Both the position numbers and the translations under genes were made by a program. A DNA stretch of 40,995 bases from an uncultured Methanospirillaceae archaeon. Lineage in GTDB: Archaea; Halobacteriota; Methanomicrobia; Methanomicrobiales; Methanospirillaceae. Positions 5,358 through 24,585 of this stretch are shown here, in pieces (position 1 is the first letter of the stretch; every line of letters starts with the position of its first letter). The notes below the pieces were generated by a model, which was not told the origin of the DNA, searched no databases, and was given only the letters and a program-made list of their open reading frames with translations. The stretch covers positions 1 to 40,995 of the forward strand of contig CASGHA010000141.1 in the NCBI GenBank assembly GCA_949319355.1, given 5' to 3'.

Positions 5358-5375
5358 TCCTACCACTCCAGGTCA

Positions 5376-5380
5376 TTTTT
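5376..5380 (+). terminator. Oligo-T tract downstream of ABCE1
   Basis: A T5 run begins 19 nt after the ABCE1 stop, in a convergent intergenic region that also has two short hairpins (5435-5453; 5462-5482). Archaeal terminators are typically oligo-T. Confidence 0.3.
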
Positions 5381-5546
5381 AGTTGTTCTCCCTTTGATAG
5401 GCTGACAAGTGGCCCCCCTCCCTGCAGGCACTTCACCGGAGTCCTCATCCGGTATACCGCGCTTGTCGGACAGGCAGACAAGGGGGCTGTATTGCGGTCG
5501 TAATGTAAAGTTTTACCTTTCAGGTGAGGACCCTCCGGGTTTCATT

Positions 5547-6574: not shown

Positions 6575-6580
6575 AAAAAA
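6575..6580 (-). terminator. Oligo-T tract (T6 on minus strand) directly after the last gene of the envelope operon
   Basis: Plus-strand aaaaaa at 6575-6580 lies 2 nt downstream of the TAA stop (6583-6585), followed by an A/T-rich region. Confidence 0.45.
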
Positions 6581-6582: not shown

Positions 6583-8277
6583 TTAGATCTTGAGGTCGTC
6601 CTCGTCGAGGTCGAGGTCATCGAGAGAGGAGCCCTCTTCTGGTTGTTCTATGTCTGCCGTTTCCTCTTCGCCTTCATTTTCATCCACATCCTCTCCTCCG
6701 CCGCGGCGTTTCATGAGATAGATGATGAGGATAACGACGATCACGACGACGACGATGATGACGATCAGGAGGAGCAGGAGGTAAAAGGGGAGTGCCCCGA
6801 TGATCGGAAGTCCCGCAGGCGTTGGCGTTGGTGTTGGAGTCCGGATGACCACGGGTTCAGGTGTGGGTGTCGGCACCGGGTTGAAGAGGCCGTACATGCT
6901 GAAATGACTGACGGTTATCGTGACCGTCCGTGCTGTCGGGTCGACCGCGGCCGGGACATCCTCCCATGACTTCGAGGTCGGGTTGTACCATTTTGCCTTT
7001 ATCTCCTGCTGGCTTACGGAACCCCATTTATCCTGGGGAATGAGGAACCGGATGGTCGCGCCTGGAGAGAAGGACGCTCCGTCAGGCTTAAAGTCATAGG
7101 CAATCCCTGAAAAAGTTAAGGTCGGTCCTGCTGACGGGACATCTGCCTGGTTCACCCTGACGACCCTGATGTTATCAAGCGGCTTTCCGGAGGCGTCAAC
7201 CGGCTGCACGCCGGTCGCAAGTGAAACCGATGCGATTCCGTCCTCGGAAACGATATCAACCGGGTTTAATACCGTACCGTTCGCTGACAGGGGAATCATC
7301 CCGCTTCCCACCGGGACGGTTGGTGCCGTGGTCCTGGCAGCATAGGCGGTTGCCGTCGGCTTCGGGTTGGGGTTGATGTAGGTATCGTACTGGTTGTCAC
7401 TCCCACCATCACCCGAGCTGCCGCCACCTCCGCCACCAGTGCCGCCTCCGCTGGAACTGGTGGTCACTTCGATGACAAGCTCTGTCGTCTTGCCGCTCTG
7501 GTAGGGATAGGAATTCATCCAGCCAGATGCTTCCTGCACTGACTTGACCCTGGCCTTTGCAGCCCGAAGGTAGTTCTTGTCGGTGACCCAGAACTCCACG
7601 GGGGCACCATCGGAAATACCACCCTGGACGATAAGTTTCTGTTCAAGGGCTCCTGAGCCTCCAAAACGGCTGTCACCCATGACATAGACCGGGTTGTTCG
7701 GACCGCTGATGGCACGGCCATAAACCCTTGCCTCCACGATCCCATCGGTAGAGACGGGTTTGCCATAGGCGATGACAGTCCCATAGAAACTGTGTGGCAG
7801 GCTTGGGAGAAGCGTGGAAACCGCGGTCCCGGTCGGCTGGCCGGTAGGCTTTGTCGTAGGCTTTGTGGTAGGAGCTGTAGTCGTCGGTTTCGTCGTTACC
7901 GGGCTGCCGCCGGTTGACAGGTCGAGGTTTGTCGCTATGCCCGGCTGGAATGGGACTTTCTGGATCGCTGCCTTTCCCGCAATGGTGAACTCAACGGTTG
8001 GAGTACCCTTTGCCAGGTCTTCCTCGGTAGCGACCACGACAAGCCGCTCACTGAATGCCCCCGTTCCCGAACCGTATACACCACTGGAACTCGTTGTTAT
8101 CGACCCGCGCTGCTGGCCGTTTATCTTGGCTATTATGGTCGTCCCCGATGGTGCCGCCTTTCCGTCTATCGACACTGAGCCGTAGAATTCCGCAGGCAAG
8201 GGCGGGGCCGCCGAAGCCGAGGAAATGAGGAGAAGCGCCAGCAGGGCGAAGGAAAAGAGAAGTAAGGGGGTTCTCAT
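6583..8277 (-). CDS. Membrane-anchored surface protein: signal peptide, two 'FYG' beta-modules, T/P and G/S linkers, PGF-pre-PGF-like domain, single TM, acidic cytoplasmic tail
   Basis: Preferred start is ATG 8277 (MRTPLLLFSFALLALLLISSASA), with GGAGG at 8286-8290; the track start is 8310. PGF-pre-PGF-like segment: FSGIAYDFKPDGASFSPGATIRF...TITVSHFSMYGLF. C-terminus: LLLLLIVIIVVVVIVVILIIYLMKRR followed by 39 aa, 19 of them D/E. Confidence 0.8.
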   Translation of the reverse strand: MRTPLLLFSFALLALLLISSASAAPPLPAEFYGSVSIDGKAAPSGTTIIAKINGQQRGSITTSSSGVYGSGTGAFSERLVVVATEEDLAKGTPTVEFTIAGKAAIQKVPFQPGIATNLDLSTGGSPVTTKPTTTAPTTKPTTKPTGQPTGTAVSTLLPSLPHSFYGTVIAYGKPVSTDGIVEARVYGRAISGPNNPVYVMGDSRFGGSGALEQKLIVQGGISDGAPVEFWVTDKNYLRAAKARVKSVQEASGWMNSYPYQSGKTTELVIEVTTSSSGGGTGGGGGGSSGDGGSDNQYDTYINPNPKPTATAYAARTTAPTVPVGSGMIPLSANGTVLNPVDIVSEDGIASVSLATGVQPVDASGKPLDNIRVVRVNQADVPSAGPTLTFSGIAYDFKPDGASFSPGATIRFLIPQDKWGSVSQQEIKAKWYNPTSKSWEDVPAAVDPTARTVTITVSHFSMYGLFNPVPTPTPEPVVIRTPTPTPTPAGLPIIGALPFYLLLLLIVIIVVVVIVVILIIYLMKRRGGGEDVDENEGEEETADIEQPEEGSSLDDLDLDEDDLKI

Positions 8278-8293
8278 GATGCCACCCTCCTTC

Positions 8294-11200
8294 TCACGTT
8301 CCAATCGCACTTAAGGTCCCGGCTGATTTCATGAACAACCAGTACCCCTTGGTCGGGTAGAGCGTCCTCATGTCTGAGAAATCTCCGCTCCCGCCGTTTA
8401 CGATCGTCGTTTCATACTTCTGACCCGTGGCGTCAAACCCTATCGCATTTGCCCACTGTGCCTGGACCGAGAAGAATGCATCACGTGCGGTCGCCGGCTG
8501 CATACCGGAGAATCCTATGGCATTCCAACCGCTTGGGAGGTTCTTTGACGGCGGAACCGAGATGGGGTCGGTCGAGAACTTCAGGGGGACTGAAGTCAGG
8601 GCTCTTGAGTAGATCCAGATCCCGTCAAGCACTTTCACCGGGCTCGTTGGTGTCAGGGTAATCCAGGTACCCTTGGTCGTGTCGTACTCGTAGATCGAGT
8701 GACTGGCCGTATCCACGCTGGTAAAGATCGAGGCATTGTCATACCCCGGCTGGAGGACCCTGGGTGTTGAAACGAAGTTCCATCCCGGGAAGAGGGTTAT
8801 GCTGTCATATCCCGGAGGGATGGGCTGGTCTGACCGGACTGAAATCACCTGTGAGACCGTGCTGCTTGCATCAACTCCGTTTCCAACCGTCAGGGTGACC
8901 GTGTAATTGCCGGCATTATTGTAGGTATGCGATCCGGGGTTCGGCAATGCCGAATACGTCGAGTCACCGAAGTCCCAGAACCAGGTGTTCGGGTTCCCGT
9001 AGGACATGTCGGTGAAATTCACAGTCAGTGGTTTCATACCAATCGTCGGTTCCGCGCTGAAGGAGGCGGAAAGGACAACGGCACCGACATTGATGTAGGC
9101 GACCTTGCTTGCGGTCCTGGTCACACCATCAGGGTCTACCGCTTTTAAGGTCACCGTGTAGGAACCGTCAGTGACATAGGTGTGCGTCGGGTTCTTGTCG
9201 GTGGAGGTCGTGCTGTCACCGAACTCCCAGGTCCTGCTGATCTCCGTAATGGTCGAGAGGTCAGTGAAATTGACGGTCAGGGGAGCCCTGCCGCCGGTGG
9301 GGTTGGCAGAGAAGTCCATTCCGATTGAGTTCACGTCCTGGACCGTCAGGGTGAAGGTCTGGTAGATGTCGTCGACACAGGGCTGCTTGAGGGCGTTGAG
9401 GACACCGTTGTACCCTGCATAGTCATACTTTCCACCCGGGCCTTCGATCGGGAACAGGTATGACCACTTCACCGGGCACACGCTCGAGACGAACCAGCGG
9501 TTGGCACCATCGTTCGGGTTCTTCTGGAGGTCGATGTCCAGGACGCGGTTGTACATCGGGTGCTGGAGGATGAAGTAATACCTGCCTGGCGCAACCTTGT
9601 CGACCGGGAATACCGGGTCATTCGGGCCGAAAGAGATAGTGAACGTGTCGTCGCACTTCACTTCGTAGTAGGCGTGGGCATAGTGGACGTCAGCGATCTT
9701 ACCGTCACCGAATATCCATAGCCCGATTATCTTCTTCCCTGTGACCGGATCTACGCCGAGTCCGGTGGCCTTTCCACTGATGGTCACGGTGTGGTCGTTA
9801 CAGCACTCGCGGATGAGTGGGTTGGGCTTGAGCACGGCGGTGAGCACCGGGCGTTCTATGATAATTTTCGCCTGGGCTGTTGCAGCGCATGCGACGCAGC
9901 AGTCATTGCATTTGTTCGGGCAGTACGCCACGTTGCTGCACGGAGTCGGGCTTGGCGAGGGGGCAGGGGTCGGGACATCGCAGGACCAGTTGCTTGCCGC
10001 GAAAATCGTGTATTCTCCGGCATCGATCTTGAGGTCCATGATGGTCCAGTTATACGTCCAGGTCCCGTCCTGGTTCACCTTGACCTTGGTCGGGATGCCG
10101 AGAGGTATCTGCGGGTTGTCGATGGGTGCCCCACAGACTGGCTGGCACGGGCCCTTTAACCAGAGGAAGGTTGTGAGCGTCTCGGTGTTCGTTCCGTTGA
10201 TGAGGACGAACTTCGAGGTGCCGAGCGTTACATTTGCCGGCATGTTGATGGTCACGACCCCCTTGGTGACCGTTACCTTGGCGTCAGGGTTCGTGTAGAT
10301 GTCACGGTTGTCGATGGTCTTTCCCTGGGCATGATAGGTAAAGGTGGCCGGAGCGGTATCGATGGAGGTCTGCAGGTTGATGACCTTGGTCCCGGTTGCA
10401 TCTGTCTTCACATAGGCGTAGTATCTTGTCCCGTCAAAGGGTGTCTTCGGGATGATGCTGCGTATGGTGCTTCCCGGGTAACAGCAGTCAGGGACAGTCT
10501 TCGTGTTCCCGATGGTGTAGTTGCCGTTCGGGGTGTCAAAGAGGACGTTCTCCTGGCCTTCCACGATCATTGGCGGCTGGTTACAGGCTTTTCCATCGAA
10601 TGTCTGCGGGCAGTCCATCAGGTATACATAGTACCAGGTGTTCGGCCTGCCCGTTACGATAAGGTTGAAGGGCTTGGACCTGACAACCGATGTCGGGTTT
10701 GCCGTGATACTAAGGGTCTCGGGGAGGAGCTCGACATTCCGTGCAGCAGAAATAGCTGACGGGTTGTTGATGTTCAACTTGTTTGCAAGACAGGAGACCT
10801 TGAACTGGTAGATCCCTGTGTCATAGACGTAGTTCTCTCCTGACGGTCCCTTAACACCCGTGAACCAGCCGTTGTTGGTCTTCTCAGTTACCCAGTAGTA
10901 CGGGTTGTTGTTCACTGGGATGCTCACGAGGGAGATATCCGTTCCTGTCGGTGACATCAGGGCACTATAGATGTTGCCACCCGGGCCTGTGACATTGATG
11001 ACGAACGGGCCTGGTGAGCTCGGGTCCCTGGTGGTTATCGGGAACAGGTTCGTCTCTATCCTGAAGTTCAGGACAGTCCCCTGGAAGACTTTCTTATCGG
11101 TTACGTCCAGGTCTGTCGGGTTGGTAACGGACTTGATCTGGATGTACGGCTTCATCAGCGTGAAAGCGGTCTTTCCAGCCGGTGGAGCCCCGTTCCAGCA

Positions 11201-11521
11201 GTACCATGTACCCTGGCTCACATCTGAGAAGATCTTCGGGTCAAAGTAAAACGACTTCTTGTTCGACAGGTCGTTCACTATCTGTATCGGTGTGTCCTTG
11301 GTCGGGTCGGCATTGTTTGCGAACAGTGCGATCCGCGTGTACGGGTCAGGGACTGCGACCGAGATGTCCATACCTTCCTCCCCGATGAACACCGTGCTGT
11401 TCGGGGCGACGTATGTGAAGCCCTTCGGGAACGGGGGAGGGACGTCAGCCGAGACGACACAGCCGAATACGGAGGCCGCCAGGGCGAGTACCATGATGAG
11501 TTTCAACCATTTTCCAGTCAT
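8294..11521 (-). CDS. Large secreted Cys-rich surface (S-layer-like) glycoprotein, paralogue A: conserved core, Cys knot, 2 PKD domains, twin-GWN C-terminal domain
   Basis: Signal peptide MTGKWLKLIMVLALAASVFGCVVSA and many N-x-S/T sequons. Collinear with 11523..14984 (VFIGEEGMDIS/VYVGEEGLDIT, NPTDLDVTDKKVFQGTVLNF/NPNDLDVTDKSVFHGTVLNF, LWLKGPCQPVCGA/LWLKGPCQPECGA, RECCNDHT in both, GRYYFILQHPMYN/GRYYMILQHPMYN). From memory it resembles the Methanomicrobiales-restricted DUF3821-type S-layer glycoproteins; this is unverified. Confidence 0.85.
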   Translation of the reverse strand: MTGKWLKLIMVLALAASVFGCVVSADVPPPFPKGFTYVAPNSTVFIGEEGMDISVAVPDPYTRIALFANNADPTKDTPIQIVNDLSNKKSFYFDPKIFSDVSQGTWYCWNGAPPAGKTAFTLMKPYIQIKSVTNPTDLDVTDKKVFQGTVLNFRIETNLFPITTRDPSSPGPFVINVTGPGGNIYSALMSPTGTDISLVSIPVNNNPYYWVTEKTNNGWFTGVKGPSGENYVYDTGIYQFKVSCLANKLNINNPSAISAARNVELLPETLSITANPTSVVRSKPFNLIVTGRPNTWYYVYLMDCPQTFDGKACNQPPMIVEGQENVLFDTPNGNYTIGNTKTVPDCCYPGSTIRSIIPKTPFDGTRYYAYVKTDATGTKVINLQTSIDTAPATFTYHAQGKTIDNRDIYTNPDAKVTVTKGVVTINMPANVTLGTSKFVLINGTNTETLTTFLWLKGPCQPVCGAPIDNPQIPLGIPTKVKVNQDGTWTYNWTIMDLKIDAGEYTIFAASNWSCDVPTPAPSPSPTPCSNVAYCPNKCNDCCVACAATAQAKIIIERPVLTAVLKPNPLIRECCNDHTVTISGKATGLGVDPVTGKKIIGLWIFGDGKIADVHYAHAYYEVKCDDTFTISFGPNDPVFPVDKVAPGRYYFILQHPMYNRVLDIDLQKNPNDGANRWFVSSVCPVKWSYLFPIEGPGGKYDYAGYNGVLNALKQPCVDDIYQTFTLTVQDVNSIGMDFSANPTGGRAPLTVNFTDLSTITEISRTWEFGDSTTSTDKNPTHTYVTDGSYTVTLKAVDPDGVTRTASKVAYINVGAVVLSASFSAEPTIGMKPLTVNFTDMSYGNPNTWFWDFGDSTYSALPNPGSHTYNNAGNYTVTLTVGNGVDASSTVSQVISVRSDQPIPPGYDSITLFPGWNFVSTPRVLQPGYDNASIFTSVDTASHSIYEYDTTKGTWITLTPTSPVKVLDGIWIYSRALTSVPLKFSTDPISVPPSKNLPSGWNAIGFSGMQPATARDAFFSVQAQWANAIGFDATGQKYETTIVNGGSGDFSDMRTLYPTKGYWLFMKSAGTLSAIGT
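8297..8806 (-). other. Twin-GWN C-terminal domain, copy in paralogue A (170 aa)
   Basis: DSITLFPGWNFVSTP...DGIWIYS...PLKF / NLPSGWNAIGFSG...YETTIV...LYPTKGYWLFM...GTL. It aligns end to end with the last 169-170 aa of the two upstream genes. Confidence 0.8.
8837..9334 (-). repeat. Two tandem PKD domains in paralogue A (protein-level repeat, 83 aa each)
   Basis: FSANPTGGRAPLTVNFTDLS...WEFGDSTTSTDKNPTHTYVTDGSYTVTL and FSAEPTIGMKPLTVNFTDMS...WDFGDSTYSALPNPGSHTYNNAGNYTVTL. Confidence 0.85.
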
Positions 11522-11522
11522 G

Positions 11523-14500
11523 TTAGATCACTCCTTCGAGAGTACCGTCAGAATTCATATCAATCCAGTATCCATGCGTCGGATACATAAGCCTGTTCTC
11601 GCTCGTCTCGGGATCCTGGCTCCCTGCGATGATCGCCGTCTCATACTGCTGCTTCGATGCATCCCATCCGTTCACCTGGTTCCACAGACCCTTCACCGAC
11701 AGGAGGTCGTCACGGGCTGACTTCGGATATATACCTGACACTCCGATGGCATTCCATCCGGTGTATAACTGTTTCACGGGCTTTACTCCGCTCGTCGTGT
11801 TGAGCGACAGGCTGATGCTCATCGTACTGGTCGAATACACTCCGTATCCCTCAAGTGGGACGATGACTTCAGAGGCTGTGACCGAGTCCCATGCCTGGCT
11901 GATTCCGTTGTACTTGCGAATCGAGTGGCCCGCGGTATTCACTCCTCCAAAGACCTTCGAGGCGGTATTCTGGCCCTCCTTCAGATAGAGGGGGACTGAT
12001 GCGAGGTTCCATCCCGGGTAGAGGTCGATTGTCGTATATCCCGGGTAGGGAGTCGGGGTGGGGGTGACCCCCATGGTGCTGATATACTTGTTCTTCACGA
12101 TGTACCCCGAAGTCCCGTCGGCAAATTTCACGTTCAGGCTGACGTCAAAAATACCTGTTGTCTCGTAGGTGTGGACAGGGTTTTTTTCCGTGGAGGTTGC
12201 ACCGTCACCGAAATCCCAGCTCCACGCGTTCGCCGTCGTCGCGGACTTGTCGGTGAATGTGACCTTCAGGGGAGCAGAACCGGCTACGGGTGTTCCACTG
12301 AAGTCAACCTTTCCTCCGCTGTCATCAACGACGTAAAAGCTGAGTGTGGTGTAGATATCATCCACACAGTCTGCGTTCAGGGCTTCGATGACACCGTCAT
12401 ACATTTCCTTGTCCATCTTAGCCCCGGGCCCCTCGACCGGGAAGAGGAAGGATGGCAGGATGTTCGGACACCAGGACACGACGTATTTGCGGTTCCTTGT
12501 CGGATCGTAATACCCTCCGTTCAAAACCTCGATGTCAAACCTGTTGTTGTACATCGGGTGCTGGAGGATCATGTAGTACCTGCCGTTCTTCACCTTGTCG
12601 ACCGGGAAGCCATGGACGTATGTCAGTCCAAGGCCCGGGTCATCGACACCACTGCCGTCCTTCGTGAGCTTGATGGTAAACGTGTCATTGCACGAGACGT
12701 AGGCATCTCCGACAAGGTAGTGGATATCGAGGATCTTCCCGTCTCCGAAGAGCCAGAAGCGTATCTTTTTCGTGTTGTTGACCTCGCTGCATTGGGTATG
12801 AAGCCCTGTTGCGGTACCCTGGATGGTTATGGTATGGTCATTGCAGCATTCCCTGACAAGGACTGACGGTGTCACCGTCGCACTGATGATCGGCTTGATC
12901 AGGGTTATGTTCGTCTGGGTAGTCGCGGCACATCCCGTGCAGAGCTTGCAGTCCTGGTTGGGACAGTAGCAGGACTGTTCACAGGTGGACGTTGTCCCGC
13001 TCCCTCCATTCGATGTACACTGCCCGTTGCAGTCTCCTCCCTGGCGACAGATGGGAATCGGGCAGGGGACCTCGGGAGTACATGGGTTTACATACCCGTT
13101 ATCGGTGACATTGGATACTGTGCAGTTCGTTGAACAATACCAGTTCGTTGCTGCATAAATCGTGTATTCACCAGCATCGATGTTCAGGTTCGCGACCGAC
13201 CATTTGTATTCCCATGTCCCGTCGGCGGAAACCGGCACGACCGTCGGACAACCAAGCTTGTAACTTGGATTCGAGAGATTTGCGCCGCATTCTGGCTGGC
13301 ACGGTCCCTTGAGCCAGAGGTAGGTCCTCAGGGTTTCCGTGTTCACCCCTTTTATGAGGATAGTGTTCAGGGTCCCGAGGGTTGCACTCGGCTGCATGGA
13401 GATACTGATGCTTCCTGCCGTGACCGTGACCTGGGCATCAGGATCGGTATATATGATTTTTCCGTCCAGGCCACGGGTGTAAGCATGATAGGTAAACGTC
13501 GTGGTCTTGGTATTCAGGGTGGTGAGCATGTTGATGACGGCCTTCCCTGAATCGTCGGTCTTGACATAGGCGTAATACCGGACACCGTTTTCAGGTTTCC
13601 TGGGGACGACATCCTTGATAGGACTGTTCGGGAAACAGCACTCCGGATAGGTCATGTTGTTTCCTATTGTGTAAACCGGGAACGCGGGATTGTATCCGTC
13701 CATAATGACATTGTTCTGACCGGGTGCGATAAGCGGGGCTTCGTCGCACGTCCCCCCTGTCAGGGTCCTCGGGCAGTCCTTTAAGTAGAAGTTATACCAG
13801 GTGTTGGGCCGTCCCTGAATGGTCAGGCTGAACGGATTGGAACGGATGACACTTGACGGGCTGGACGTGATGCTCACGACTTCAGGCTTCAGCTCGACCG
13901 TGTGCGTCTTCGAGACCGCCCCTGATGGATTGTTTTCCTTCAGCTTGTTCGCATTGCATTCAATCCAGAAGGAATATGTCCCCATCTTGTACTGGAAATT
14001 CATACCCTGGGTGTCCTGTGCAGCGGTATACCATCCCTGTTCAGTCCCGGGGGTGACCATGTAATAGGGGTTGTTGCTAATCCTGAAATCCTTGAGTGAG
14101 ATCTGTCCTGTCTTGCTTGCAAGGGCTGTGTAGATGACCCCGTCAGGGCTCTTCACGTAGATGGTGAAAGGACCCACTCCCGCAGGACAGGAAGTAGTAC
14201 GGCTGCCCATTGCATCGAGGTTTGTCTCAACCTTGAAGTTCAGGACCGTCCCATGGAACACCGACTTATCGGTTACATCGAGGTCATTGGGGTTGTCAGT
14301 GCAGGTAATGTTCATTACCGGGTTGACAGCCACAAATGCGACCATCAGGTTTCTTGTAACATTAATCTGGTCGCTCCACAGGTACCATGCCCCCTGATAT
14401 CCCGAATATTGCGTTGGTGCGATGAAGTAACTGGTCTTCGACCCGGACGGTATGGGAAGGATCATCTTCGGGTTCGCTGTGATAGGGTCATCCCCTGCTT

Positions 14501-14984
14501 CGAACCAGGCAATCGATGATATGTTCCCAACGGCATTCGTGATGTCGAGCCCTTCCTCCCCGACATACACGGTGTCACCCTGGTTGATCTGGTTGATCTT
14601 GCATGGTGCCGGAGTTGGTGTCGGGGTCGGTGAGGAACCAATCGTCAGGTCCAGCGACGTGGAACCGCCGCTTAAGAAATACGCGGTTTCCGAAGCCTGG
14701 TTCCCGTTGATATAGAACGTGATGAGATCTCCGTTCATGTTTCCGGTGACGAGGAGCTGCGGAGTCGTGATACCGTACGATCCATTCGTCGCGGTCGTCG
14801 TGGTCCCAACTATGGTCCCATTAATCTTCGCACTAATCGTAGCCCCTGCAACCGGCAGGTTGTTCACTTTTGCCGTACCGTAGAAGAACTCAGGGAGGAC
14901 CGGCGCTGCCATCGCCGTCCCTACCATGAGTACGAGCAGAATCCCTGCTATGATGAACCCTTTTTTCATAACCTCTCCCTTCAT
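11523..14984 (-). CDS. Large secreted Cys-rich surface (S-layer-like) glycoprotein, paralogue B: N-terminal FYG module, conserved core, expanded Cys knot, 1 PKD, twin-GWN C-terminal domain
   Basis: Signal peptide MKKGFIIAGILLVLMVGTAMA (alternative start ATG 14969, preceded by GGGAGAGG). FYG module at 14637-14903, PKD at 12075-12314 (FSGTPVAGSAPLKVTFTDKS...WDFGDGATSTEKNPVHTY). A 24-mer identical to paralogue A (gttgtacatcgggtgctggaggat at 12546-12569 and 9548-9571) encodes ILQHPMYN. Confidence 0.85.
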   Translation of the reverse strand: MKGEVMKKGFIIAGILLVLMVGTAMAAPVLPEFFYGTAKVNNLPVAGATISAKINGTIVGTTTTATNGSYGITTPQLLVTGNMNGDLITFYINGNQASETAYFLSGGSTSLDLTIGSSPTPTPTPAPCKINQINQGDTVYVGEEGLDITNAVGNISSIAWFEAGDDPITANPKMILPIPSGSKTSYFIAPTQYSGYQGAWYLWSDQINVTRNLMVAFVAVNPVMNITCTDNPNDLDVTDKSVFHGTVLNFKVETNLDAMGSRTTSCPAGVGPFTIYVKSPDGVIYTALASKTGQISLKDFRISNNPYYMVTPGTEQGWYTAAQDTQGMNFQYKMGTYSFWIECNANKLKENNPSGAVSKTHTVELKPEVVSITSSPSSVIRSNPFSLTIQGRPNTWYNFYLKDCPRTLTGGTCDEAPLIAPGQNNVIMDGYNPAFPVYTIGNNMTYPECCFPNSPIKDVVPRKPENGVRYYAYVKTDDSGKAVINMLTTLNTKTTTFTYHAYTRGLDGKIIYTDPDAQVTVTAGSISISMQPSATLGTLNTILIKGVNTETLRTYLWLKGPCQPECGANLSNPSYKLGCPTVVPVSADGTWEYKWSVANLNIDAGEYTIYAATNWYCSTNCTVSNVTDNGYVNPCTPEVPCPIPICRQGGDCNGQCTSNGGSGTTSTCEQSCYCPNQDCKLCTGCAATTQTNITLIKPIISATVTPSVLVRECCNDHTITIQGTATGLHTQCSEVNNTKKIRFWLFGDGKILDIHYLVGDAYVSCNDTFTIKLTKDGSGVDDPGLGLTYVHGFPVDKVKNGRYYMILQHPMYNNRFDIEVLNGGYYDPTRNRKYVVSWCPNILPSFLFPVEGPGAKMDKEMYDGVIEALNADCVDDIYTTLSFYVVDDSGGKVDFSGTPVAGSAPLKVTFTDKSATTANAWSWDFGDGATSTEKNPVHTYETTGIFDVSLNVKFADGTSGYIVKNKYISTMGVTPTPTPYPGYTTIDLYPGWNLASVPLYLKEGQNTASKVFGGVNTAGHSIRKYNGISQAWDSVTASEVIVPLEGYGVYSTSTMSISLSLNTTSGVKPVKQLYTGWNAIGVSGIYPKSARDDLLSVKGLWNQVNGWDASKQQYETAIIAGSQDPETSENRLMYPTHGYWIDMNSDGTLEGVI
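11526..12035 (-). other. Twin-GWN C-terminal domain, copy in paralogue B (170 aa)
   Basis: TTIDLYPGWNLASVP...EGYGVYS...SLSL / QLYTGWNAIGVSG...YETAII...MYPTHGYWIDM...GTL. Confidence 0.8.
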
Positions 14985-17399
14985 TTATGCCATCCCCTGA
15001 AGAACACCGTTGTCAGTCAGATACACCCAGTAGCCGTGTGCAGGGTACAGGACCCGGTTGTCTGAGTAGACCGGGTCTGTGCTCCCTCTCACGATAACCT
15101 CCTCCGGGCTCTGGGTCATCCCGTTAAATCCCTGTACATAGGTCCAGGTGGTTCCGAGAGACTGGAGGGTCAGGTTGGCTGAACGGGGTGTAAGACCTGA
15201 AAAGCCCATGCCGTTCCACCCCTTGTACAGTTGTCTGGACGGGGTGGGTGATACAAAGGCGAATTGCAACGGGACTATCGTATTTGCTGTCGAGAATACC
15301 CAGTAACTCTCCAGGGGTCTGAGGACACGCCCTGAGGACACGATCTCCCAGGACGTCGTGTTGCCGTCGTACATGAGGATTGAACGATGGCCCGTATTCA
15401 CACCAGCAAATACTACCCCTGCGGTTGCATTACCCAAACCCAGTTCTTTTGGAACGGAGACATGGTTCCAGCCGGGGTAGAGGACGATACTGTCCCCGGA
15501 TGGTACCTCTCCCGTTATGGTAACCTGGTGGGTGGCATTACTTGAACCGCCGTCGTTGGTGACCGTGAGCGTGACGTTGAATGTCCCTGCCATGAGATAG
15601 GTATAGACCGGGTTCTGGTACGGAGAAGCTCCTCCTTCACCGAAGTCCCACAACCACTGGGTTATCCCCGCACCTGTTGACTGGTCGGTAAACTGGATGG
15701 GGATAGAAACGTTCCCGTTGAAGGTGCTTGCCGTGAATGCAGCCACTGGCGGGCTGTTCAGGACATGCACTGCGTTCTCCCGCGACGCGATGGCGGATCC
15801 CTGGGCGTTGCTCACCTGGAGTTCGATTTTATAGGGGCCTGGTTTTTCCAGTGAGAAACTGGGACTTTGCAGGTTGGACGTGTTGACCAGCTGGTACCCT
15901 GAACCTGTCCACCAGAACACTTTCCAGAACCATGATGTGGGTGACCCGGTTGAGGTGTCCTGGCATGCGATTTCAAGGGGTGCGAAACCGGTTTCAGGGT
16001 TTACGGTAAAGTTCGCGCCCAGAGATGAACTGCCCACCCTGATGAAGTCTGTCGCCACTTTATTGCTGGTCTGGTTGTTGATGTCGGTGACGGTCAGAGA
16101 AACGGTGAAATTATTGGCCGTCTGGTAGGTGTGGACAGGATTTTTCAGGAACCGGTCAGAGTGAGTGGAATTGTCCCCAAAGTCCCAGAGGTATGTCAAC
16201 GGGCCTGCTCCGGCCGACTGGTCAATGAAATCGACGGTAAGGGGAGGGGCTCCTGACCTGGGGCTTGCCGCGAAGTCGGCGAAGGGTCCTGGCATGAGAG
16301 TCGCCTGGATGTCGCGTGACTTCTGACCGGTCTTTCCATCTCCGTCAGTGACTGTCAGGTTCACATGGTACGTCCCTGCACCCGTAAAGGTGTGCACCGG
16401 GTTTCGTTCCATTGATGTTGTGTTATCGCCGAAACTCCAGTTATAGGAGAGTGGTGAAACCCCTTTCGATGTGTCGGTGAAGCTCACGTGGAGGGGAGCG
16501 ACCCCGACAACCGGGCTCTCAGTAAAGTCGACATTCGGTGAAGGACCAACGGTGATCTGGAGCGGTGCCGAGGTATTCGTCATGTACTGGACGGCGGCGG
16601 TCAGGGTGACCGTGCTCGTGTTGTGGAATACGTGCACCGGGTTTCGTTCGTTCGACGTCGAACCGTCTCCGAAGTCCCAGTAGTACCGGTTTCCGAAGAG
16701 GGCCATTATGGGGTTGGTCGGGTCAACCGGCCACATCCCGCGGGATGTGTCATTGAACTGCACGGTGAGCGGGCCGTCCCCCGATACCGGTGATGCCGTG
16801 AAACTGGCTGCCGGGTATACGTCAATCCCGTAATCCCACGCTTCATCTGAAAGCCCGTGGCCTCCGGTAGCATTCAGGTAGATTTCGTAACTCCCTGCAT
16901 AGGGGAAGGTCACCAGGGGGTCCTTACTGGTCGAATTCATCGTGTCCATCCCCCAGAACTCCCAGTACCATGCCGTGGGAGACCCTTGCGAGGTATCGTG
17001 GAACTGTACTGTCAATGGCGCAGGACCCGATGCAGGAGAATAGGAAAAGCTGGCATTCGGATGAACCGCCACGTTCTTGGTAATTTTCGACGTGCTCGCA
17101 TCCGTTCCGGTCACCGTGAGGTTCACGGCATAGAGGTCGGATGTGTGATAGTCGTGCGTTGCGTTCTGTGTGTTTGCGTAACCTGCGTCTCCAAACTCCC
17201 ACAGCCAGGAAGCAATGCTGCCCGTAGAGTTGTCAGTAAACTGGACCGAAAGGGGCGCCCTGCCTTCATCCGGAACGGCGTTAAAATCCGCGTTCACGGC
17301 TGCACTGGCGAACCCTATAATAAGCAGGCCCAGGACTGCTACAAACAGAGCACCTGCTGCGCGGAGCCTTCGTTCGCTAGGCTCCTCTCGTTCTTGCAT
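14985..17399 (-). CDS. Secreted protein with seven tandem PKD domains and the twin-GWN C-terminal domain; first gene of the envelope operon
   Basis: N-terminal signal (SERRLRAAGALFVAVLGLLIIGFASA). Seven repeats follow the PKD pattern F..sP..G.aPL.V.F.D.S.G....W.WdFGD......NP.H.Y, then 169 aa of twin-GWN domain. Its stop directly abuts the next gene. Confidence 0.9.
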   Translation of the reverse strand: MQEREEPSERRLRAAGALFVAVLGLLIIGFASAAVNADFNAVPDEGRAPLSVQFTDNSTGSIASWLWEFGDAGYANTQNATHDYHTSDLYAVNLTVTGTDASTSKITKNVAVHPNASFSYSPASGPAPLTVQFHDTSQGSPTAWYWEFWGMDTMNSTSKDPLVTFPYAGSYEIYLNATGGHGLSDEAWDYGIDVYPAASFTASPVSGDGPLTVQFNDTSRGMWPVDPTNPIMALFGNRYYWDFGDGSTSNERNPVHVFHNTSTVTLTAAVQYMTNTSAPLQITVGPSPNVDFTESPVVGVAPLHVSFTDTSKGVSPLSYNWSFGDNTTSMERNPVHTFTGAGTYHVNLTVTDGDGKTGQKSRDIQATLMPGPFADFAASPRSGAPPLTVDFIDQSAGAGPLTYLWDFGDNSTHSDRFLKNPVHTYQTANNFTVSLTVTDINNQTSNKVATDFIRVGSSSLGANFTVNPETGFAPLEIACQDTSTGSPTSWFWKVFWWTGSGYQLVNTSNLQSPSFSLEKPGPYKIELQVSNAQGSAIASRENAVHVLNSPPVAAFTASTFNGNVSIPIQFTDQSTGAGITQWLWDFGEGGASPYQNPVYTYLMAGTFNVTLTVTNDGGSSNATHQVTITGEVPSGDSIVLYPGWNHVSVPKELGLGNATAGVVFAGVNTGHRSILMYDGNTTSWEIVSSGRVLRPLESYWVFSTANTIVPLQFAFVSPTPSRQLYKGWNGMGFSGLTPRSANLTLQSLGTTWTYVQGFNGMTQSPEEVIVRGSTDPVYSDNRVLYPAHGYWVYLTDNGVLQGMA
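14988..15494 (-). other. Twin-GWN C-terminal domain, copy in the PKD protein (169 aa)
   Basis: DSIVLYPGWNHVSVP...ESYWVFS...PLQF / QLYKGWNGMGFSG...EEVIV...LYPAHGYWVYL...GVL. Confidence 0.8.
15498..17294 (-). repeat. Array of seven PKD domains (protein-level tandem repeat)
   Basis: Repeat starts: NADFNAVPDEGRAPLSVQF, NASFSYSPASGPAPLTVQF, AASFTASPVSGDGPLTVQF, NVDFTESPVVGVAPLHVSF, FADFAASPRSGAPPLTVDF, GANFTVNPETGFAPLEIAC, VAAFTASTFNGNVSIPIQF. The repeats are divergent at DNA level. Confidence 0.85.
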
Positions 17400-17554
17400 T
17401 CTTACACCCCGTCACCAACATCTGTCCTTCTGCCAAGACCCTTCATGATGGAGGGGCAGTCATGGGGAACCATTGACCCAATTATAGCTCCGCCTTTCGG
17501 ACTGCCTTGATCACTCCGGATGGACGATGTTAATTCATCTCTTGTTCTTTACCC

Positions 17555-17564
17555 TAATATAAAT
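17555..17564 (-). promoter_or_regulatory. TATA-like box (minus strand ATTTATATTA) upstream of the envelope operon
   Basis: It lies ~160 nt upstream of the first start codon (17399) in a 584-nt A/T-enriched intergenic region, which would imply a long 5' leader. No transcript data are available. Confidence 0.3.
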
Positions 17565-17626
17565 GTTCTTATGTCGGGAATGATCAGTATTGGGCTTTAT
17601 TCACCTGAATACCTCGTTTATAGCCA

Positions 17627-17642
17627 TATTTTTATAAAAAAA
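17627..17642. promoter_or_regulatory. A/T palindrome (atatttttataaaaaa), alternative TATA/BRE-like element or protein-binding site
   Basis: The core tttttataaaaa is self-complementary and is the most A/T-rich spot of the intergenic region upstream of the operon. Confidence 0.25.
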
Positions 17643-17891
17643 CAGCGCTACCCGGGTACTTCTGTATCAAGCCGCACGCGGGGTGAAATACCCTGTGCTC
17701 ATTTCAGTGAAGGAATTGGGATGGGGGAGAGTGGGTGTGTCCCGGGTGTACCTTCCATTCACAGGAATCGGTATGCAGGGGGTTATTTTGGGATATATCC
17801 TGTTATTTCAGGAACGGATGAGATGATGACAAATCACCTACCCGGCAGCCACGACATTCATTACCAGGCAGAGACGTGGTCAAGACGAAAC

Positions 17892-17897
17892 AAAAAA
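17892..17897 (-). terminator. Oligo-T tract (T6 on minus strand) downstream of the 17984..18679 gene
   Basis: Plus-strand aaaaaa lies ~87 nt downstream of the stop, in an A/T-rich stretch. Confidence 0.3.
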
Positions 17898-17983
17898 TGA
17901 AGGAAATTCTTTATTATTATTTACCGCGGGTGAATATCGGTTTATTTTACAATTGGTCTCCATTATCCTGGCTGATTTGGGGC

Positions 17984-18679
17984 TTACCTGCCCGCCGGTG
18001 GAGATGAGGAGATGGTCATAGTCAGGTTGCCGTCGATTACGCGGGCATCGGTAACTGACTGGAAAAAACCTGAACTGACGCTTCCGAATGACATGTCAAC
18101 CGCCAGGGATACGGGGGTCGCAATGGAGGTCTCATTGATTCCGAGGAGGAGGACCGGGGTATCTCCTTGTGATACTGTCGGTATGACCTCTGCGGGGGCT
18201 CCTAGTACCCGAGGGTCCAGAGAAGGGGAGGTCTCCATGCCCTGCTCCAGGGTATGAAGCGTGATGGTGATCATCTGGTCTGCATTTTCAGGTACGCAGA
18301 CGCATTGCTCTCCTCCCTGTACCGGGTCTGGGCACTGGATCTCCTCAAACCTCTCTCCCGGAGAGGTGACCGGTGTGGTGGAAACGGTATCATTTTCACT
18401 GATTTCAATTTCAAATGGCTTATTATAGGACGAATTCCTGTTCATATTCTCATCAGGACAGATAATCCCGGTACCCAGGCATACTGGTGACACCAGGCAT
18501 TCTTGTCCCTGGGATACGTCACGACTTCTGGATATTTCCTGGACCTCTTCGGCCGGGTCCAGGCTGAGGATCGTGATCTCCGCCATGTCAGGGGACTGCC
18601 AGGTGCCGGTGTCAGCGAGGCCTCCCCATGAGAGAAAAGTCAGGCCAAGGACTGAAACGACACACCACGCAGTGTTCAT
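17984..18679 (-). CDS. Secreted hypothetical protein (231 aa), Cys-containing
   Basis: N-terminal signal peptide MNTAWCVVSVLGLTFLSWGGLA and clustered Cys (ECLVSPVCLGTGIICP; IQCPDPVQGGEQCVCVP). No family recognised; monocistronic by spacing. Confidence 0.6.
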   Translation of the reverse strand: MNTAWCVVSVLGLTFLSWGGLADTGTWQSPDMAEITILSLDPAEEVQEISRSRDVSQGQECLVSPVCLGTGIICPDENMNRNSSYNKPFEIEISENDTVSTTPVTSPGERFEEIQCPDPVQGGEQCVCVPENADQMITITLHTLEQGMETSPSLDPRVLGAPAEVIPTVSQGDTPVLLLGINETSIATPVSLAVDMSFGSVSSGFFQSVTDARVIDGNLTMTISSSPPAGR

Positions 18680-18791: not shown

Positions 18792-19598
18792 TCAGTCCTC
18801 ATGCAGCTGTTGTCTGACACCTGCAAGGAGGATGCAGCCTGCCAATGCCATGACCAGGGCTGCGAACCCGAGAGGCGACTTCTTTGTTGTTGCAACAGGC
18901 ACTTCGGCCGCCTTCTGTGGTGATGAGCCGGCAGGTGTCTGTACAGACACTGACTCCCTGGTTCCTGTTGCATTAGCAGGAGTTATGTTCGTGCTATCCG
19001 GTGATTTGTTGACTGATACGGGAGCACCTTCATGAGGTGTCATCACGCCTGCTGTTGTAGCAGATGCCATGATGGTCCCGGTCGTGACCGGTTGCCCTGT
19101 CCGTGCAACTGTTGGAAAATCTCCCGAGTCCGGGGATGATGACTGGCTGCCTGTCGAGGCACTCTTTGAAGACAGGCTGGTCGCCTGGACCACTGGATAT
19201 TCTGCCTGTTTCTGGCCTGCTGAACCTGAAGAGCCGACGGTGAGGTCCAGTCTGGTACTTGCCCCTGCCTGGTATGTAGCGGTCTCTGCAGCCTTCTGGC
19301 CGTTGACCGTGAACTCGATGACGGGTGACCCTGCAGACTTGAGTTCTTCCTCCGTCATCGCGATTGAGAGCCTCTGGTCGAACGTCCCGGTCCCACCGTA
19401 GATACCTGCAGATGTTGTGGTTATTGAGCCCCGCTCCACACCATTGATTACCGCTTTGACCACGGTTCCCGGCTCTGCCTGGGCTCCGTTTACCGCAACA
19501 CTGCCGAAGAACTCTGATGGGAGCACAGGAGCCCCGTGCACCGTCATGACCATCAGGACGGCTGTAAAAATGAGTACACCTGTTTTAAAGCCTTTCAT
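18792..19598 (-). CDS. Surface protein: signal peptide, one FYG module, S/T/P-rich stalk, PGF-CTERM-like C-terminal sorting signal
   Basis: Preferred start is ATG 19598 (MKGFKTGVLIFTAVLMVMTVHGA); the track ORF extends to 19682. The FYG module at 19233-19529 is ~55% identical by eye to module 1 of the 6583..8277 protein. C-terminus: VPVATTKKSPLGFAALVMALAGCILLAGVRQQLHED. Confidence 0.7.
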   Translation of the reverse strand: MKGFKTGVLIFTAVLMVMTVHGAPVLPSEFFGSVAVNGAQAEPGTVVKAVINGVERGSITTTSAGIYGGTGTFDQRLSIAMTEEELKSAGSPVIEFTVNGQKAAETATYQAGASTRLDLTVGSSGSAGQKQAEYPVVQATSLSSKSASTGSQSSSPDSGDFPTVARTGQPVTTGTIMASATTAGVMTPHEGAPVSVNKSPDSTNITPANATGTRESVSVQTPAGSSPQKAAEVPVATTKKSPLGFAALVMALAGCILLAGVRQQLHED

Positions 19599-19797: not shown

Positions 19798-21078
19798 ATG
19801 AAAAAGGATGTGATTCCTATGAAATGGTGGATCCTCGTCTGCCTGCTCGTGGCCTTCCTGTACGCCTGTTCCGGCGCCGTGGTGGCACTCACGGTCAGCG
19901 TCACCCCTGACCAAATACAATCAGGGGACCGGGTCTCGGTCAACGTGGAGGCCCTCCCGGAAAACGCGCAGTTTTCGCTCCTCCTCGATTCCTCTTTGAA
20001 AGTGGAACCTGGTTCCGAGTTCTCCTTCGAGGCCCGGCAGTTTGATGTCCCCTTTTCCCTGACCGGAGGTACGGTAACCGCCGTCATGGAAAATACCAGT
20101 TCGAACCGGCTCTACGTCAAAAAGGACGATTCTGTCGTAACCCTGTCGGGGAGTTCGAAAAACGGCAGGTTCCGCACGACCAGCTCCTATGAGATCTCGA
20201 GCGGGGTGTATGACATCATCGCCCTCGGCGGCAGGGCATCCAATACGACCGGAACGGTCAATGCCCGGCTCGAGCTTACAGGCGCGAAGAAAGGGCCGGA
20301 TTCAGGAGGAATCTCCTTCAACGTCGAAGGGATCACCGAAGGGGTCATCCATGTGACGGCCCTCGTTGATGGAAAACAGGTCCTCTACCAGCCGGTACTG
20401 GTAGGAACCTCCACCGTGGGCAAGGAACCCACCAAGTCCCCGGAATCAGGGGCCCTGACAGGACGGCCAGGATCTGATGGGGAAGATTACGGCGGGGTCA
20501 GCCCGGGAGTCCCTGCCAGGACACCTGATCCCGTTGTTTCTCACACCCCTGTTACAACACCCGCCGTGCCGGCAGGACCCGCCCCTGGTGACGCACCGGC
20601 TGTCACTTTTACCTCTGTTGATGGTTTCGTGAGTGGTTCCGGGACAGGCCCGGCTTACATAGGAATTGTCAGGGCAGATCCATCCGGGGTCCCTGGCGGA
20701 TGGGGCACAATCAGGGCTGCCTATGTCCTCTCACCTGAAAATACGACCTTTGATAGCCCTGGAGTGATCAGGATTGCGGTTCCGGAGGAGGCCAGGGAAA
20801 ATGTTTCGATCACCATAGCCCTGCAGTCAGCCGTGGGTTGGGAATTAATCCCCTCAGAATGTGATAATGGATCATGTAAAGGCGTTATTGCCGGGACAGG
20901 GACCTATGGGCTGTTCGAGCTTCCAAAGCCCAGGACATCAGCACCGGCCACCCCTTCCACGACAGAAAAGGTCCCTGTGACGACCAAGAAATCTCCGTTA
21001 TCTCCCGCAATCCCGCTGATGGCCTTTGCGATAACCTCTTTCACAGCCTGCATATGGCATCTGTCCTGTAAGGAATGA
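19798..21078 (+). CDS. Surface protein with signal peptide, PGF-pre-PGF-like domain and TTKKSPL-TM C-terminus
   Basis: Start is ATG 19798 (MKKDVIP) or 19819 (MKWWILVCLLVAFLYACSG). The cataaata box at 19788-19795 would fit a leaderless start at 19819. PGF-pre-PGF-like segment: VTFTSVDGFVSGSGTGPAYIGIVRADPS...GTGTYGLFELP. C-terminus: VPVTTKKSPLSPAIPLMAFAITSFTACIWHLSCKE. Confidence 0.7.
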   Translation: MKKDVIPMKWWILVCLLVAFLYACSGAVVALTVSVTPDQIQSGDRVSVNVEALPENAQFSLLLDSSLKVEPGSEFSFEARQFDVPFSLTGGTVTAVMENTSSNRLYVKKDDSVVTLSGSSKNGRFRTTSSYEISSGVYDIIALGGRASNTTGTVNARLELTGAKKGPDSGGISFNVEGITEGVIHVTALVDGKQVLYQPVLVGTSTVGKEPTKSPESGALTGRPGSDGEDYGGVSPGVPARTPDPVVSHTPVTTPAVPAGPAPGDAPAVTFTSVDGFVSGSGTGPAYIGIVRADPSGVPGGWGTIRAAYVLSPENTTFDSPGVIRIAVPEEARENVSITIALQSAVGWELIPSECDNGSCKGVIAGTGTYGLFELPKPRTSAPATPSTTEKVPVTTKKSPLSPAIPLMAFAITSFTACIWHLSCKE

Positions 21079-22055: not shown

Positions 22056-22811
22056 AAAAATAACAGTCATTGTCATGTTCTTCTGGTCCGGGTCGGTCTG
22101 GTCAAGCCTGCAAATCCTGCCGGTCGATGAAGCTGCCAGTACCCCTGCAAGGCTGCATATCGGGCAGGGATATATCGCGCATACCCTGGGGCTTTCTCCG
22201 CGTACCTGGAGGCACCCCTGAAGAAGTCTGAAACGTCCGAGTAAGAATGTCACGGAACTCTCGTCTTTTCTGACTTCCACCGTGTCGGCGACTTCCAGAA
22301 GTGAGCAAAACAGGTCTTTTGCAGCGGCGGGCAGGTCATCAGCCGTTGAAGGGAGCCGGAACCCGTTTGAACCGGACAATGCCGAAAACACAGGTCCGGA
22401 AGAAGAATACAGGAGGACCGCGTTTCCCTCGGGAGCAAGGATGAAACTGAAGTCTTCCTTAGGAATGGCAGGCAGGGTCTCACCAGCCGGGACTATCATG
22501 GACCCGCACTGCCCGTCCTTTCCTGGAACAAAACAGGCGTTACCGGTAACCGACAGGTCTGCACACAGCCGTGCTACGGCTATCATACCCCCCGCCGGAA
22601 GAAGTGAGACGAGTCCCGGATCGGGTGGATCTTCGCGCGAAAATGAGAAAAGGAGGACCCCCGCAATAAAACAGACCATCCCTGAAAGGACAAGGGCGGC
22701 CGAACTGACATCACCACGGTCAGTCAGGAACGCCAGACCGAGTGTTATGGCGGAAGCCACAAATAGTGCTGCGGCAGACAGGACGTAATCGTTATATCTT
22801 CCCTTTTTCAA
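22044..22811 (-). CDS. Membrane protein, unknown function (last gene of the MoxR operon)
   Basis: 255 aa with three N-terminal TM helices, then a soluble domain ending in a Cys cluster (CLQVRGESPRVCAIYPCPICSLAG). There is a 4-nt overlap with the upstream gene, and the 3' end overlaps the DUF1616 3' end by 12 nt (convergent). Confidence 0.6.
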   Translation of the reverse strand: MKKGRYNDYVLSAAALFVASAITLGLAFLTDRGDVSSAALVLSGMVCFIAGVLLFSFSREDPPDPGLVSLLPAGGMIAVARLCADLSVTGNACFVPGKDGQCGSMIVPAGETLPAIPKEDFSFILAPEGNAVLLYSSSGPVFSALSGSNGFRLPSTADDLPAAAKDLFCSLLEVADTVEVRKDESSVTFLLGRFRLLQGCLQVRGESPRVCAIYPCPICSLAGVLAASSTGRICRLDQTDPDQKNMTMTVIFSFT

Positions 22812-24582: not shown

Positions 24583-24585
24583 GGG

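Follow-up and report, generated by a model that had tools for sequence, protein, structure and literature searches.

A conserved gene cluster for probable accessory envelope proteins in Methanomicrobiales, with a shared C-terminal domain that may dock onto neighboring gene products

Four long open reading frames (ORFs), here called g1 to g4, lie head-to-tail on the minus strand at positions 6583-17399 of a 40,995-nt stretch of DNA from an uncultured Methanospirillaceae archaeon (GenBank assembly GCA_949319355.1, contig CASGHA010000141.1, positions 1-40,995). We refer to this whole stretch of DNA as the window. For the cluster to which the four genes belong, the sequences show the anatomy, the homologies and the conserved gene order, as well as the strict terminal position and the adjacency of two domains: a C-terminal domain with two GWN motifs, which we designated GWN, and a domain that mostly follows the signal peptide, which we designated FYG. 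The explanation that we modestly favor is that this is a conserved, probably co-transcribed and translationally coupled cluster for accessory envelope proteins, not for the primary surface layer (S-layer), and that the proteins assemble by docking of GWN onto FYG.

The first gene, g1 (14985-17399; minus strand, as are all cluster features given below), encodes 804 amino acids (aa) with a signal peptide, seven PKD domains (residues 35-631), a terminal GWN (629-804) and 23 N-x-S/T sequons. The g2 product (11523-14984; 1,153 aa, or 1,148 aa from a second ATG) comprises a signal peptide, FYG (28-116), an S-layer-like core of the DUF3821 type (123-888), one PKD domain (893-969) and GWN (974-1152). 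The g3 product (8294-11521; 1,075 aa) lacks the FYG module and consists of a signal peptide, a DUF3821 S-layer-like core (28-730), two PKD domains (735-889) and GWN (897-1073). Searches against Pfam returned the corresponding matches, namely seven PKD domains in g1, DUF3821 and one PKD domain in g2, and DUF3821 and two PKD domains in g3. The last gene, g4 (6583-8277; 564 aa from an ATG behind GGAGG, or 575 aa from an in-frame GTG at 8310), specifies a signal peptide, a first FYG module, a Pro/Thr linker, a second FYG module, a Gly-rich linker, a beta-rich domain resembling ZU5 and GAIN domains, a transmembrane (TM) helix and an acidic cytoplasmic tail.

The ORF map and the junction sequences agree with an earlier note on this DNA, made from the sequence alone, which had described four co-directional minus-strand genes with these coordinates and with spacers of 0, 1 and 16 nt. 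The TAA of g1 abuts the ATG of g2, with a second candidate ATG 15 nt downstream, behind GGAGAGG; a single C separates the TAA of g2 from the ATG of g3; and the TGA of g3 is followed by 16 nt that include GGAGG and then by the ATG of g4. A T6 tract (6575-6580), two bases past the g4 stop codon, is a candidate archaeal oligo-T terminator. The 584-nt intergenic region upstream of g1 (17400-17983) is presumed, by inspection, to hold the promoter and 5' leader; it contains a TATA-like TTTATAAA near 17638 and has a GC content of 45%, as against ~53-58% in the genes, in keeping with the A/T-rich region reported earlier, as was the T6 tract. Scanning for sigma-70 promoters and hairpin terminators, which tells nothing about archaeal DNA, gave no more than the shuffle expectation, and the window produced no match in searches for tRNA genes and Rfam families. 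Overall, the cluster is probably co-transcribed, presumably as a single transcript, and translationally coupled.

Hydropathy analysis showed nothing but signal-like N-terminal segments in g1-g3, and in g4 an additional C-terminal TM segment followed by a ~40-aa acidic tail; thus, as had been claimed, g4 alone is TM-anchored. The claimed richness in N-x-S/T sequons applies to g1, g2 and g3, which have 2.86, 1.13 and 1.02 sequons per 100 aa, respectively, or 4-12 times the density in 11 other window ORFs (0.23). By their sequons, g2 and g3 could be N-glycosylated. The density in g4 (0.18) is at background.

The g2 and g3 proteins are collinear paralogs with 40% identity over 1,112 columns, as the earlier note had recognized, and the identical 24-mer that it pointed out (9548-9571 and 12546-12569, encoding ILQHPMYN) is the longest exact word common to the two genes. 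Both proteins match DUF3821 (PF12863) well above the cut-off of 23 bits (g2, 168.8 bits; g3, 146.9 bits), and both match the S-layer glycoprotein family NF041431 (MEMAR_RS02690 family) with scores (306.1 and 281.6 bits) below its curated equivalog cut-off of 600. Residues 6-728 of g3 align, with 30% identity, to residues 7-674 of P0014, a canonical Methanolinea S-layer protein of 838 aa. The alignment stops there: nothing in g3 corresponds to the C-terminal part with which the canonical protein reaches its PGF-CTERM end, and the PKD and GWN domains occupy that place. Both g2 and g3 lack PGF-CTERM, with no PF18204 match and no C-terminal hydrophobic segment. As judged from these alignments, g2 and g3 keep roughly the first four-fifths of a DUF3821 S-layer glycoprotein, with PKD and GWN replacing the C-terminal part that bears the lipid anchor; by analogy, the retained portion would correspond approximately to domains D1-D5 of the published Methanospirillum models. 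The view that a plain "S-layer gene" label is inadequate is therefore well founded, given NF041431 scores of about half the cut-off and the missing PGF-CTERM.

In a neighbor-joining tree, calculated without bootstrap, g2 and g3 fall together inside a clade of FYG-core-PKD-GWN proteins. Because of this pairing, we tentatively suggest that g3 is a lineage-specific tandem duplicate of the g2 type that has lost its FYG module. The two proteins are also rich in cysteine, with 30 residues in g2 and 21 in g3; full-length homologs have 15-32, and the three canonical S-layer proteins checked have none. At least nine cysteine positions are invariant in an alignment of seven sequences, including CC pairs and a CxxxCxxCCxxC stretch. 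On the outside of a strict anaerobe, these cysteines may form disulfides or bind metal.

The C-terminal domains of g1 (14988-15515), g2 (11529-12065) and g3 (8303-8833), delimited by three-way alignment and a profile, align over ~175 aa with 37-42% identity and share two GWN motifs, confirming that the three products end in the same domain of ~170 aa. Neither Pfam nor NCBIfam has a model for GWN, and neither gave a meaningful match even at E <= 10. The AlphaFold2 (AF2) model of the g3 copy (window 8294-8830) has a predicted local distance difference test score (pLDDT) of 94.6 and a predicted template modeling score of 0.89; a Foldseek search of this model against the PDB found no significant neighbor (best E 0.19). 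Its sole significant structural neighbor came from a search against viral models; it is the predicted structure of a protein from a marine phage, annotated as "putative hemin binding protein" (BFVD A0A8D9C8P8; E 2.5e-4, query TM-score 0.62).

A profile search for GWN recovered 143 protein clusters, in none of which a Pfam model covers the domain. All stated organism names are those of Methanomicrobiales and include Methanoculleus, Methanofollis, Methanocalculus, Methanoregulaceae and Methanospirillaceae. The passengers fused to GWN are diverse (PKD, DUF3344, fasciclin, PEGA/CarboxypepD_reg, DUF4430 and DUF3821), and the domain sits at the C-terminus of 121 of 122 locus ORFs and of all 120 database proteins (241 of 242 together). 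GWN is thus not peculiar to this operon; as a general C-terminal domain, it ends many secreted proteins that are unrelated to one another. Among the long-read metagenome-assembled genomes (MAGs), some assemblies have cluster genes that are split into overlapping ORFs, likely by frameshift errors (loci L086:3513-6687 and L087:3099-6639), and many short "stand-alone GWN" proteins in the database are probably fragments of larger, frameshifted genes. The abundance of stand-alone GWN is overstated, because several of these proteins are such fragments.

The FYG profile was built from the four copies in the window, among them the N-terminal module of g2 (14637-14903) and the two modules of g4 (7909-8205 and 7468-7806). 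With a threshold of E <= 1e-3 it matched 2,792 representative clusters, and with E <= 1e-10 it matched 801; FYG directly follows the signal peptide in the majority of them. At least one match comes from Woesearchaeota, and fusions to C1 and M10 peptidases also occur. FYG is thus a large, unannotated domain family. Several small secreted FYG proteins, whose genes come directly behind GWN-ending ones, have dockerin-like Ca-binding repeats at their C-termini (L085:10777-11613, L086:6689-7597 and L088:6516-7100; in L088, for example, DINGNGRKDFADVV...DYNGNGRIDFADVV), a possible sign that FYG proteins are connected with cohesin-dockerin networks of archaea. Methanospirillum has, in addition, a second three-gene cluster in which proteins with three or four copies of FYG and a GWN are followed by a PKD8-11-GWN protein, with no S-layer core (L047:6766-17131 and L049:4890-13847).

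In the AF2 model of g4, FYG is a beta-sandwich of ~100 aa, and the protein as a whole consists of beta domains and disordered linkers, with no coiled coil. The custom profile, hydropathy and this model together recover the two FYG modules, the TM helix (6703-6786; residues ~498-525) and the acidic tail that follows it (6586-6702), all of which the earlier note had listed. The juxtamembrane beta-rich domain (6880-7323) is modeled with a pLDDT of ~80-90. Foldseek matched g4 residues ~325-467 to the ankyrin ZU5 domain 3kbu_D (target TM-score 0.65, probability 1.0) and matched the juxtamembrane domain to the GAIN domain 4dlo_B (probability 0.99). The identification of a PGF-pre-PGF-like domain in g4 (TIGR04213) had to be rejected because there is no NCBIfam match at E <= 10; the predicted fold is ZU5/GAIN-like, and the C-terminus is a TM helix with a 40-aa acidic tail, not a PGF-CTERM. 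Searches of NCBIfam and Pfam with whole g4, with the isolated FYG modules and with the juxtamembrane domain gave nothing meaningful even at E <= 10, and a PDB sequence search gave only PKD matches for g3 and Gly-linker noise for g4. Going by the model, g4 is a type-I membrane protein in which flexible linkers hold the two FYG modules, both beta-sandwiches, above a domain of the ZU5/GAIN kind. The last strand of this domain, SHFSMYGLF, recalls the H-F-S motif at which ZU5 proteins cleave themselves; orthologs have HTS, HTT or DGG at the SHFS site.

A genome collection was scanned with a profile of the g2/g3 family, and the resulting 76 loci were mapped by means of custom HMMs, five in all, for FYG, core, PKD, GWN and the juxtamembrane domain. 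The gene order is identical in 97%-identical relatives (one of them, L007, with 97% protein identity, is labeled as an uncultured Methanoregulaceae archaeon), and Methanolinea, MAGs of Methanomicrobiales and Methanospirillum, the last with three complete genomes, have clusters that are syntenic with it. Spacers across the conserved clusters are mostly -26 to +33 nt. Gene order and tight spacing thus persist from close relatives through to Methanolinea and Methanospirillum, and the cluster is shared by Methanoregulaceae, Methanolinea and Methanospirillum.

Three types of cluster can be told apart. The window type, also found in MAGs labeled Methanomicrobiales or Methanoregula (L008, L010, L030, L068 and L087), consists of PKDn-GWN, FYG-core-PKD-GWN, FYG2-(PKD)-ZU5-like-TM and a small FYG-TM gene. 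The Methanolinea type (L005, L023, L025, L029, L031-L038, L041, L043 and L064) has PKDn-ZU5-like-TM, a gap, core-PKD-GWN and FYG2-PKD-ZU5-like-TM. The Methanospirillum type (L015, L018 and L035, the last from M. purgamenti; the three complete genomes are of this type) has core-PKD3-GWN, FYG-core-PKD2-GWN, an FYG/PKD protein of ~810 aa without a TM segment and a small FYG gene. The description of g4 as a dedicated membrane anchor therefore stands for the window but is clade-specific, because the fourth gene in Methanospirillum lacks the TM segment. The small gene has its equivalent in the window at 18792-19598, where a 268-aa protein with a signal peptide, FYG, a linker and a TM segment is encoded, probably on a separate transcript. 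It is a conserved neighbor of the cluster in relatives; by gene order, then, the conserved unit is wider than the four genes and its neighborhood takes in this one.

The evidence that ties GWN to FYG is their recurrent adjacency. In 67 of the 103 GWN-ending genes with enough downstream sequence, a gene that starts with FYG follows within -53 to +39 nt. The partners vary: Methanoculleus bourgensis has a beta-helix-PKD-GWN protein followed by a minimal protein made up of a signal peptide, FYG, a ZU5-like domain and a TM segment, and a second pair in which PKD-GWN is followed by an FYG-PKD-metallophosphatase, whereas in Methanofollis and two other MAGs the GWN gene is followed by an FYG gene with a dockerin-like tail. 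Moreover, the PKD protein of the cluster ends, depending on the lineage, in GWN or, in the positional equivalent of Methanolinea, in a ZU5-like domain and a TM segment, which is consistent with GWN being an alternative means of surface retention.

We propose that g1-g4 would all be exported by the Sec pathway and that g1-g3, which lack an anchor of their own, would be held non-covalently at the cell surface. In this scheme, the N-terminal FYG modules of g4, of the small FYG-TM protein and of g2 itself would receive the terminal GWN, giving rise to a network tethered to the membrane. With their S-layer-like cores, g2 and g3 may also become part of the canonical S-layer lattice or rest on it, as has been proposed for Mhun_0425 of M. 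hungatei. Co-assembly with the lattice is inferred, as is GWN-FYG binding, the latter from genomic context. The broader idea that GWN and FYG are a cognate docking pair native to Methanomicrobiales, comparable to cohesin and dockerin, which tethers S-layer paralogs, PKD proteins, peptidases, phosphatases and other secreted proteins to membrane-anchored FYG proteins or chains them head-to-tail, and whose partners are kept adjacent and translationally coupled, is possible but on balance doubtful.

Several observations weigh against docking as the explanation. Most of the 67 GWN-then-FYG pairs are orthologous clusters, so that the counts are inflated by orthology and represent ~8 independent contexts. 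The remaining 36 of the 103 GWN-ending genes have no FYG neighbor, and two independently sampled FYG genes (L091 and L092) have no GWN neighbor. Since FYG occurs in such GWN-less neighborhoods and extends to Woesearchaeota, it is not exclusively a partner of GWN. Within the window itself, the gene behind g2 is g3, whose product carries no FYG; a recent tandem duplication as the origin of g3, suggested tentatively above, would account for this arrangement. The fourth-gene product of Methanospirillum would not serve as a membrane anchor of the g4 kind, as it has no TM segment, and g1 is matched to the PKD protein of Methanolinea by position only. The suggestion in the earlier note that soluble subunits dock onto the anchor is accordingly favored by the adjacency in 67 of 103 cases and disfavored by the 36 genes without an FYG neighbor; sharpened to binding of FYG by GWN, the mechanism is plausible.

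Part of this cluster kind has already been described in Methanospirillum. Wang et al. (2024, Sci Adv, PMC11641113) identified the lattice protein of M. hungatei as Mhun_2263, which has DUF3821, Ig-like domains D1-D6, a spacer and PGF-CTERM. The same study lists 14 paralogs, including the contiguous Mhun_0422-0425 (105, 120, 141 and 135 kDa, with PKD_4 repeats), and reports detection of Mhun_0424 and Mhun_0425 by LC-MS/MS in sheath-enriched envelope preparations. There, Mhun_0425 is described as D1-D5 with an N-terminal extension of ~100 aa and extra C-terminal domains, mixed hexamers are proposed to link the S-layer to the sheath, and the roles of the paralogs are stated to be unknown; connecting densities are visible by electron cryo-tomography (cryo-ET) in M. 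hungatei (PMC11641113). The products of the M. purgamenti cluster (121, 143 and 136 kDa) compare with 120, 141 and 135 kDa for Mhun_0423-0425, and the Methanospirillum cluster therefore appears, by architecture and protein mass rather than by direct alignment, to be Mhun_0423-0425. The domain maps of g2 and g3 fit the Mhun_0425/0424 type (D1-D5-like core, PKD_4, extra terminal domains and no PGF-CTERM). From this match in mass and architecture, we assume that g2 and g3 are related to the Mhun_0425 type.

The cluster kind is thus partly known, since its apparent counterparts Mhun_0424 and Mhun_0425 have been found in the envelope by mass spectrometry, and Wang et al. (2024) reduce its novelty. 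Their paper does not treat the cluster as a unit, nor the GWN and FYG domains or the downstream gene (PMC11641113), and none of the other papers searched mentions DUF3821 or Mhun_0425. The GWN and FYG families and the GWN-then-FYG adjacency were not found in the papers and domain libraries searched.

Could the four genes instead encode the primary S-layer, with g2 and g3 as the main lattice proteins and g4 as a dedicated membrane stalk? Such a two-component layer is known from Sulfolobales, where the SlaA and SlaB genes are encoded together. It would fit the DUF3821 core of g2 and g3 and their lack of an anchor, the TM-anchored g4 that appears translationally coupled to g3, a weak Foldseek match between g4 and SlaB (8qox_B; E 0.014, probability 0.60), and the fact that no canonical S-layer gene was seen in the 41-kb window. 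However, cluster-bearing genomes also carry canonical S-layer genes. M. lacunae has core genes with PGF-CTERM at distant positions (L053 and L061), Methanolinea has the canonical P0014 and P0015 alongside its clusters, and M. stamsii has a canonical-type core gene elsewhere (L052), in which a crude check did not detect PGF. These canonical PGF-CTERM genes at other places in related genomes led us to down-weight the explanation. Further points against it are that the M. hungatei lattice is made of Mhun_2263, with Mhun_0424 and Mhun_0425 as minor components (PMC11641113), that no coiled-coil stalk appears in the AF2 model of g4, and that a TM segment is missing from the protein that corresponds to g4 in Methanospirillum. 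Altogether, a primary S-layer locus seems quite improbable.

Proteins of the g2/g3 type might also connect the S-layer to the sheath, as minority subunits of S-layer hexamers whose FYG extension reaches the proteinaceous sheath, with no docking role for GWN, FYG or g4; Wang et al. (2024) put forward such a connector model for Mhun_0425. The presence of Mhun_0424 and Mhun_0425 in sheath preparations and the connecting densities seen by cryo-ET (PMC11641113) speak for such connectors, as does the occurrence of the cluster in the sheathed genera Methanospirillum and Methanolinea (PMC11576556). Yet a window-type cluster is present in a MAG labeled Methanoregula sp. (L068), a genus reported to lack sheath proteins (PMC11576556); g3 has no N-terminal extension; and the downstream FYG gene, the GWN of g1 and the GWN-then-FYG pairs of Methanoculleus and Methanofollis would be left unexplained. 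We regard a pure connector role as rather unlikely. The remaining alternative, to which we give a small but real chance, is that GWN is a C-terminal retention or sorting domain that recognizes a general envelope component (lattice, glycan or lipid) or a sorting machinery, in the manner of SLH domains or the C-terminal domain of type IX secretion, and that adjacency to FYG is a by-product of shuffling and tandem duplication. This would account for the near-universal terminal position of GWN, its very diverse passengers and the third of GWN genes without an FYG neighbor. It would also suit the clusters in which each gene carries both FYG and GWN (L047 and L049), where adjacency is therefore trivial. 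What it accounts for less well are the non-orthologous arrangements in which a GWN-ending gene is followed by an FYG-starting gene, overlapping or with spacers of <=10 nt, in several genera and with unrelated passengers on both sides; in addition, no candidate sorting enzyme was seen in the cluster. The region is a real conserved envelope cluster, most likely for accessory S-layer paralogs that are not lipid-anchored and for their surface partners, and GWN-FYG docking is the mechanism that we modestly favor for it.

Little is known about how archaea without a wall polymer retain accessory proteins at their surface beyond lipid anchoring by PGF-CTERM and archaeosortase. The cluster offers a concrete and widely conserved test case, with anchorless S-layer paralogs next to a membrane-anchored partner, and it exposes three unannotated families, namely GWN, FYG and the ZU5-like juxtamembrane domain. 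The GWN-then-FYG adjacency makes the binding hypothesis directly testable. If true, GWN-FYG docking would explain the display of many Methanomicrobiales surface proteins and would refine the hetero-hexamer and sheath-linker model for Mhun_0425.

The surroundings of the cluster mark a methanogenic archaeon, with CofE, RLI/ABCE1, NFACT, DUF1616, a MoxR/DUF58 set and MCM encoded in the flanks. Between the operon and the small FYG gene lies a gene for a 231-aa protein (17984-18679, minus strand) that has a hydrophobic N-terminus and no Pfam match and is conserved in the 97%-identical relatives only. A DUF1616 membrane protein and then a MoxR AAA+/DUF58/DUF4350/DUF4129 set (21075-28224) adjoin the envelope cluster; this synteny is conserved, since the same neighbors flank the Methanolinea-type cluster in L005. 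The 97%-identical relatives have ilvD (dihydroxy-acid dehydratase, 548 aa) between cofE and RLI/ABCE1 (L001:15971-17979), and the window has at that place no ilvD and only a gap of ~190 nt (5358-5546), which therefore reflects a recent indel between close strains. An ORF at the edge of the window (32-580) contains an IS110-family transposase domain (PF02371).

Among known systems, the canonical Methanomicrobiales S-layer glycoprotein (NF041431; Mhun_2263) is close to g2 and g3 in its DUF3821 core (~30% identity over ~720 residues), in the LQHPMYN motif, in being secreted and in its richness in sequons. It differs in being ~840 aa long, in ending with PGF-CTERM and in having no cysteine in the three examples checked, whereas g2 and g3 have 1,075-1,153 aa and 21-30 cysteines, end in PKD and GWN, and reach half the family cut-off score. 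Like g2 and g3, Mhun_0424 and Mhun_0425 (PMC11641113) are encoded in tandem and have S-layer-like Ig domains D1-D5 of the DUF3821 type, PKD_4, extra N- and C-terminal domains and no PGF-CTERM; by architecture, the counterpart of the g2 FYG module is the N-terminal extension of ~100 aa in Mhun_0425. Unlike the M. hungatei genes, the pair in the window looks, tentatively, like a lineage-specific duplication within the Mhun_0425-type clade, and the window cluster starts with a PKD7-GWN protein and ends with a TM-anchored FYG protein, for which Methanospirillum has a fourth gene without a TM segment.

SlaA and SlaB resemble the cluster in that neighboring genes specify an outer protein devoid of an anchor and a partner fixed in the membrane; they differ in showing no homology at the sequence level and no more than a weak fold match, in the coiled-coil stalk that g4 lacks, and in the self-anchored S-layer proteins that coexist with the cluster in related genomes. 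The juxtamembrane domain of g4 has a predicted fold that matches ankyrin ZU5 and BAI3 GAIN domains, stands just outside the TM helix and has an H-F-S motif at its end, although it has no sequence-level match to them and orthologs do not keep the motif. The parallel to cohesin and dockerin is one of principle: small terminal modules would link diverse secreted passengers to membrane-anchored scaffolds, and dockerin-like repeats form the end of some FYG partner proteins (L085, L086 and L088), whereas g1-g4, GWN and FYG themselves have no Pfam cohesin or dockerin match.

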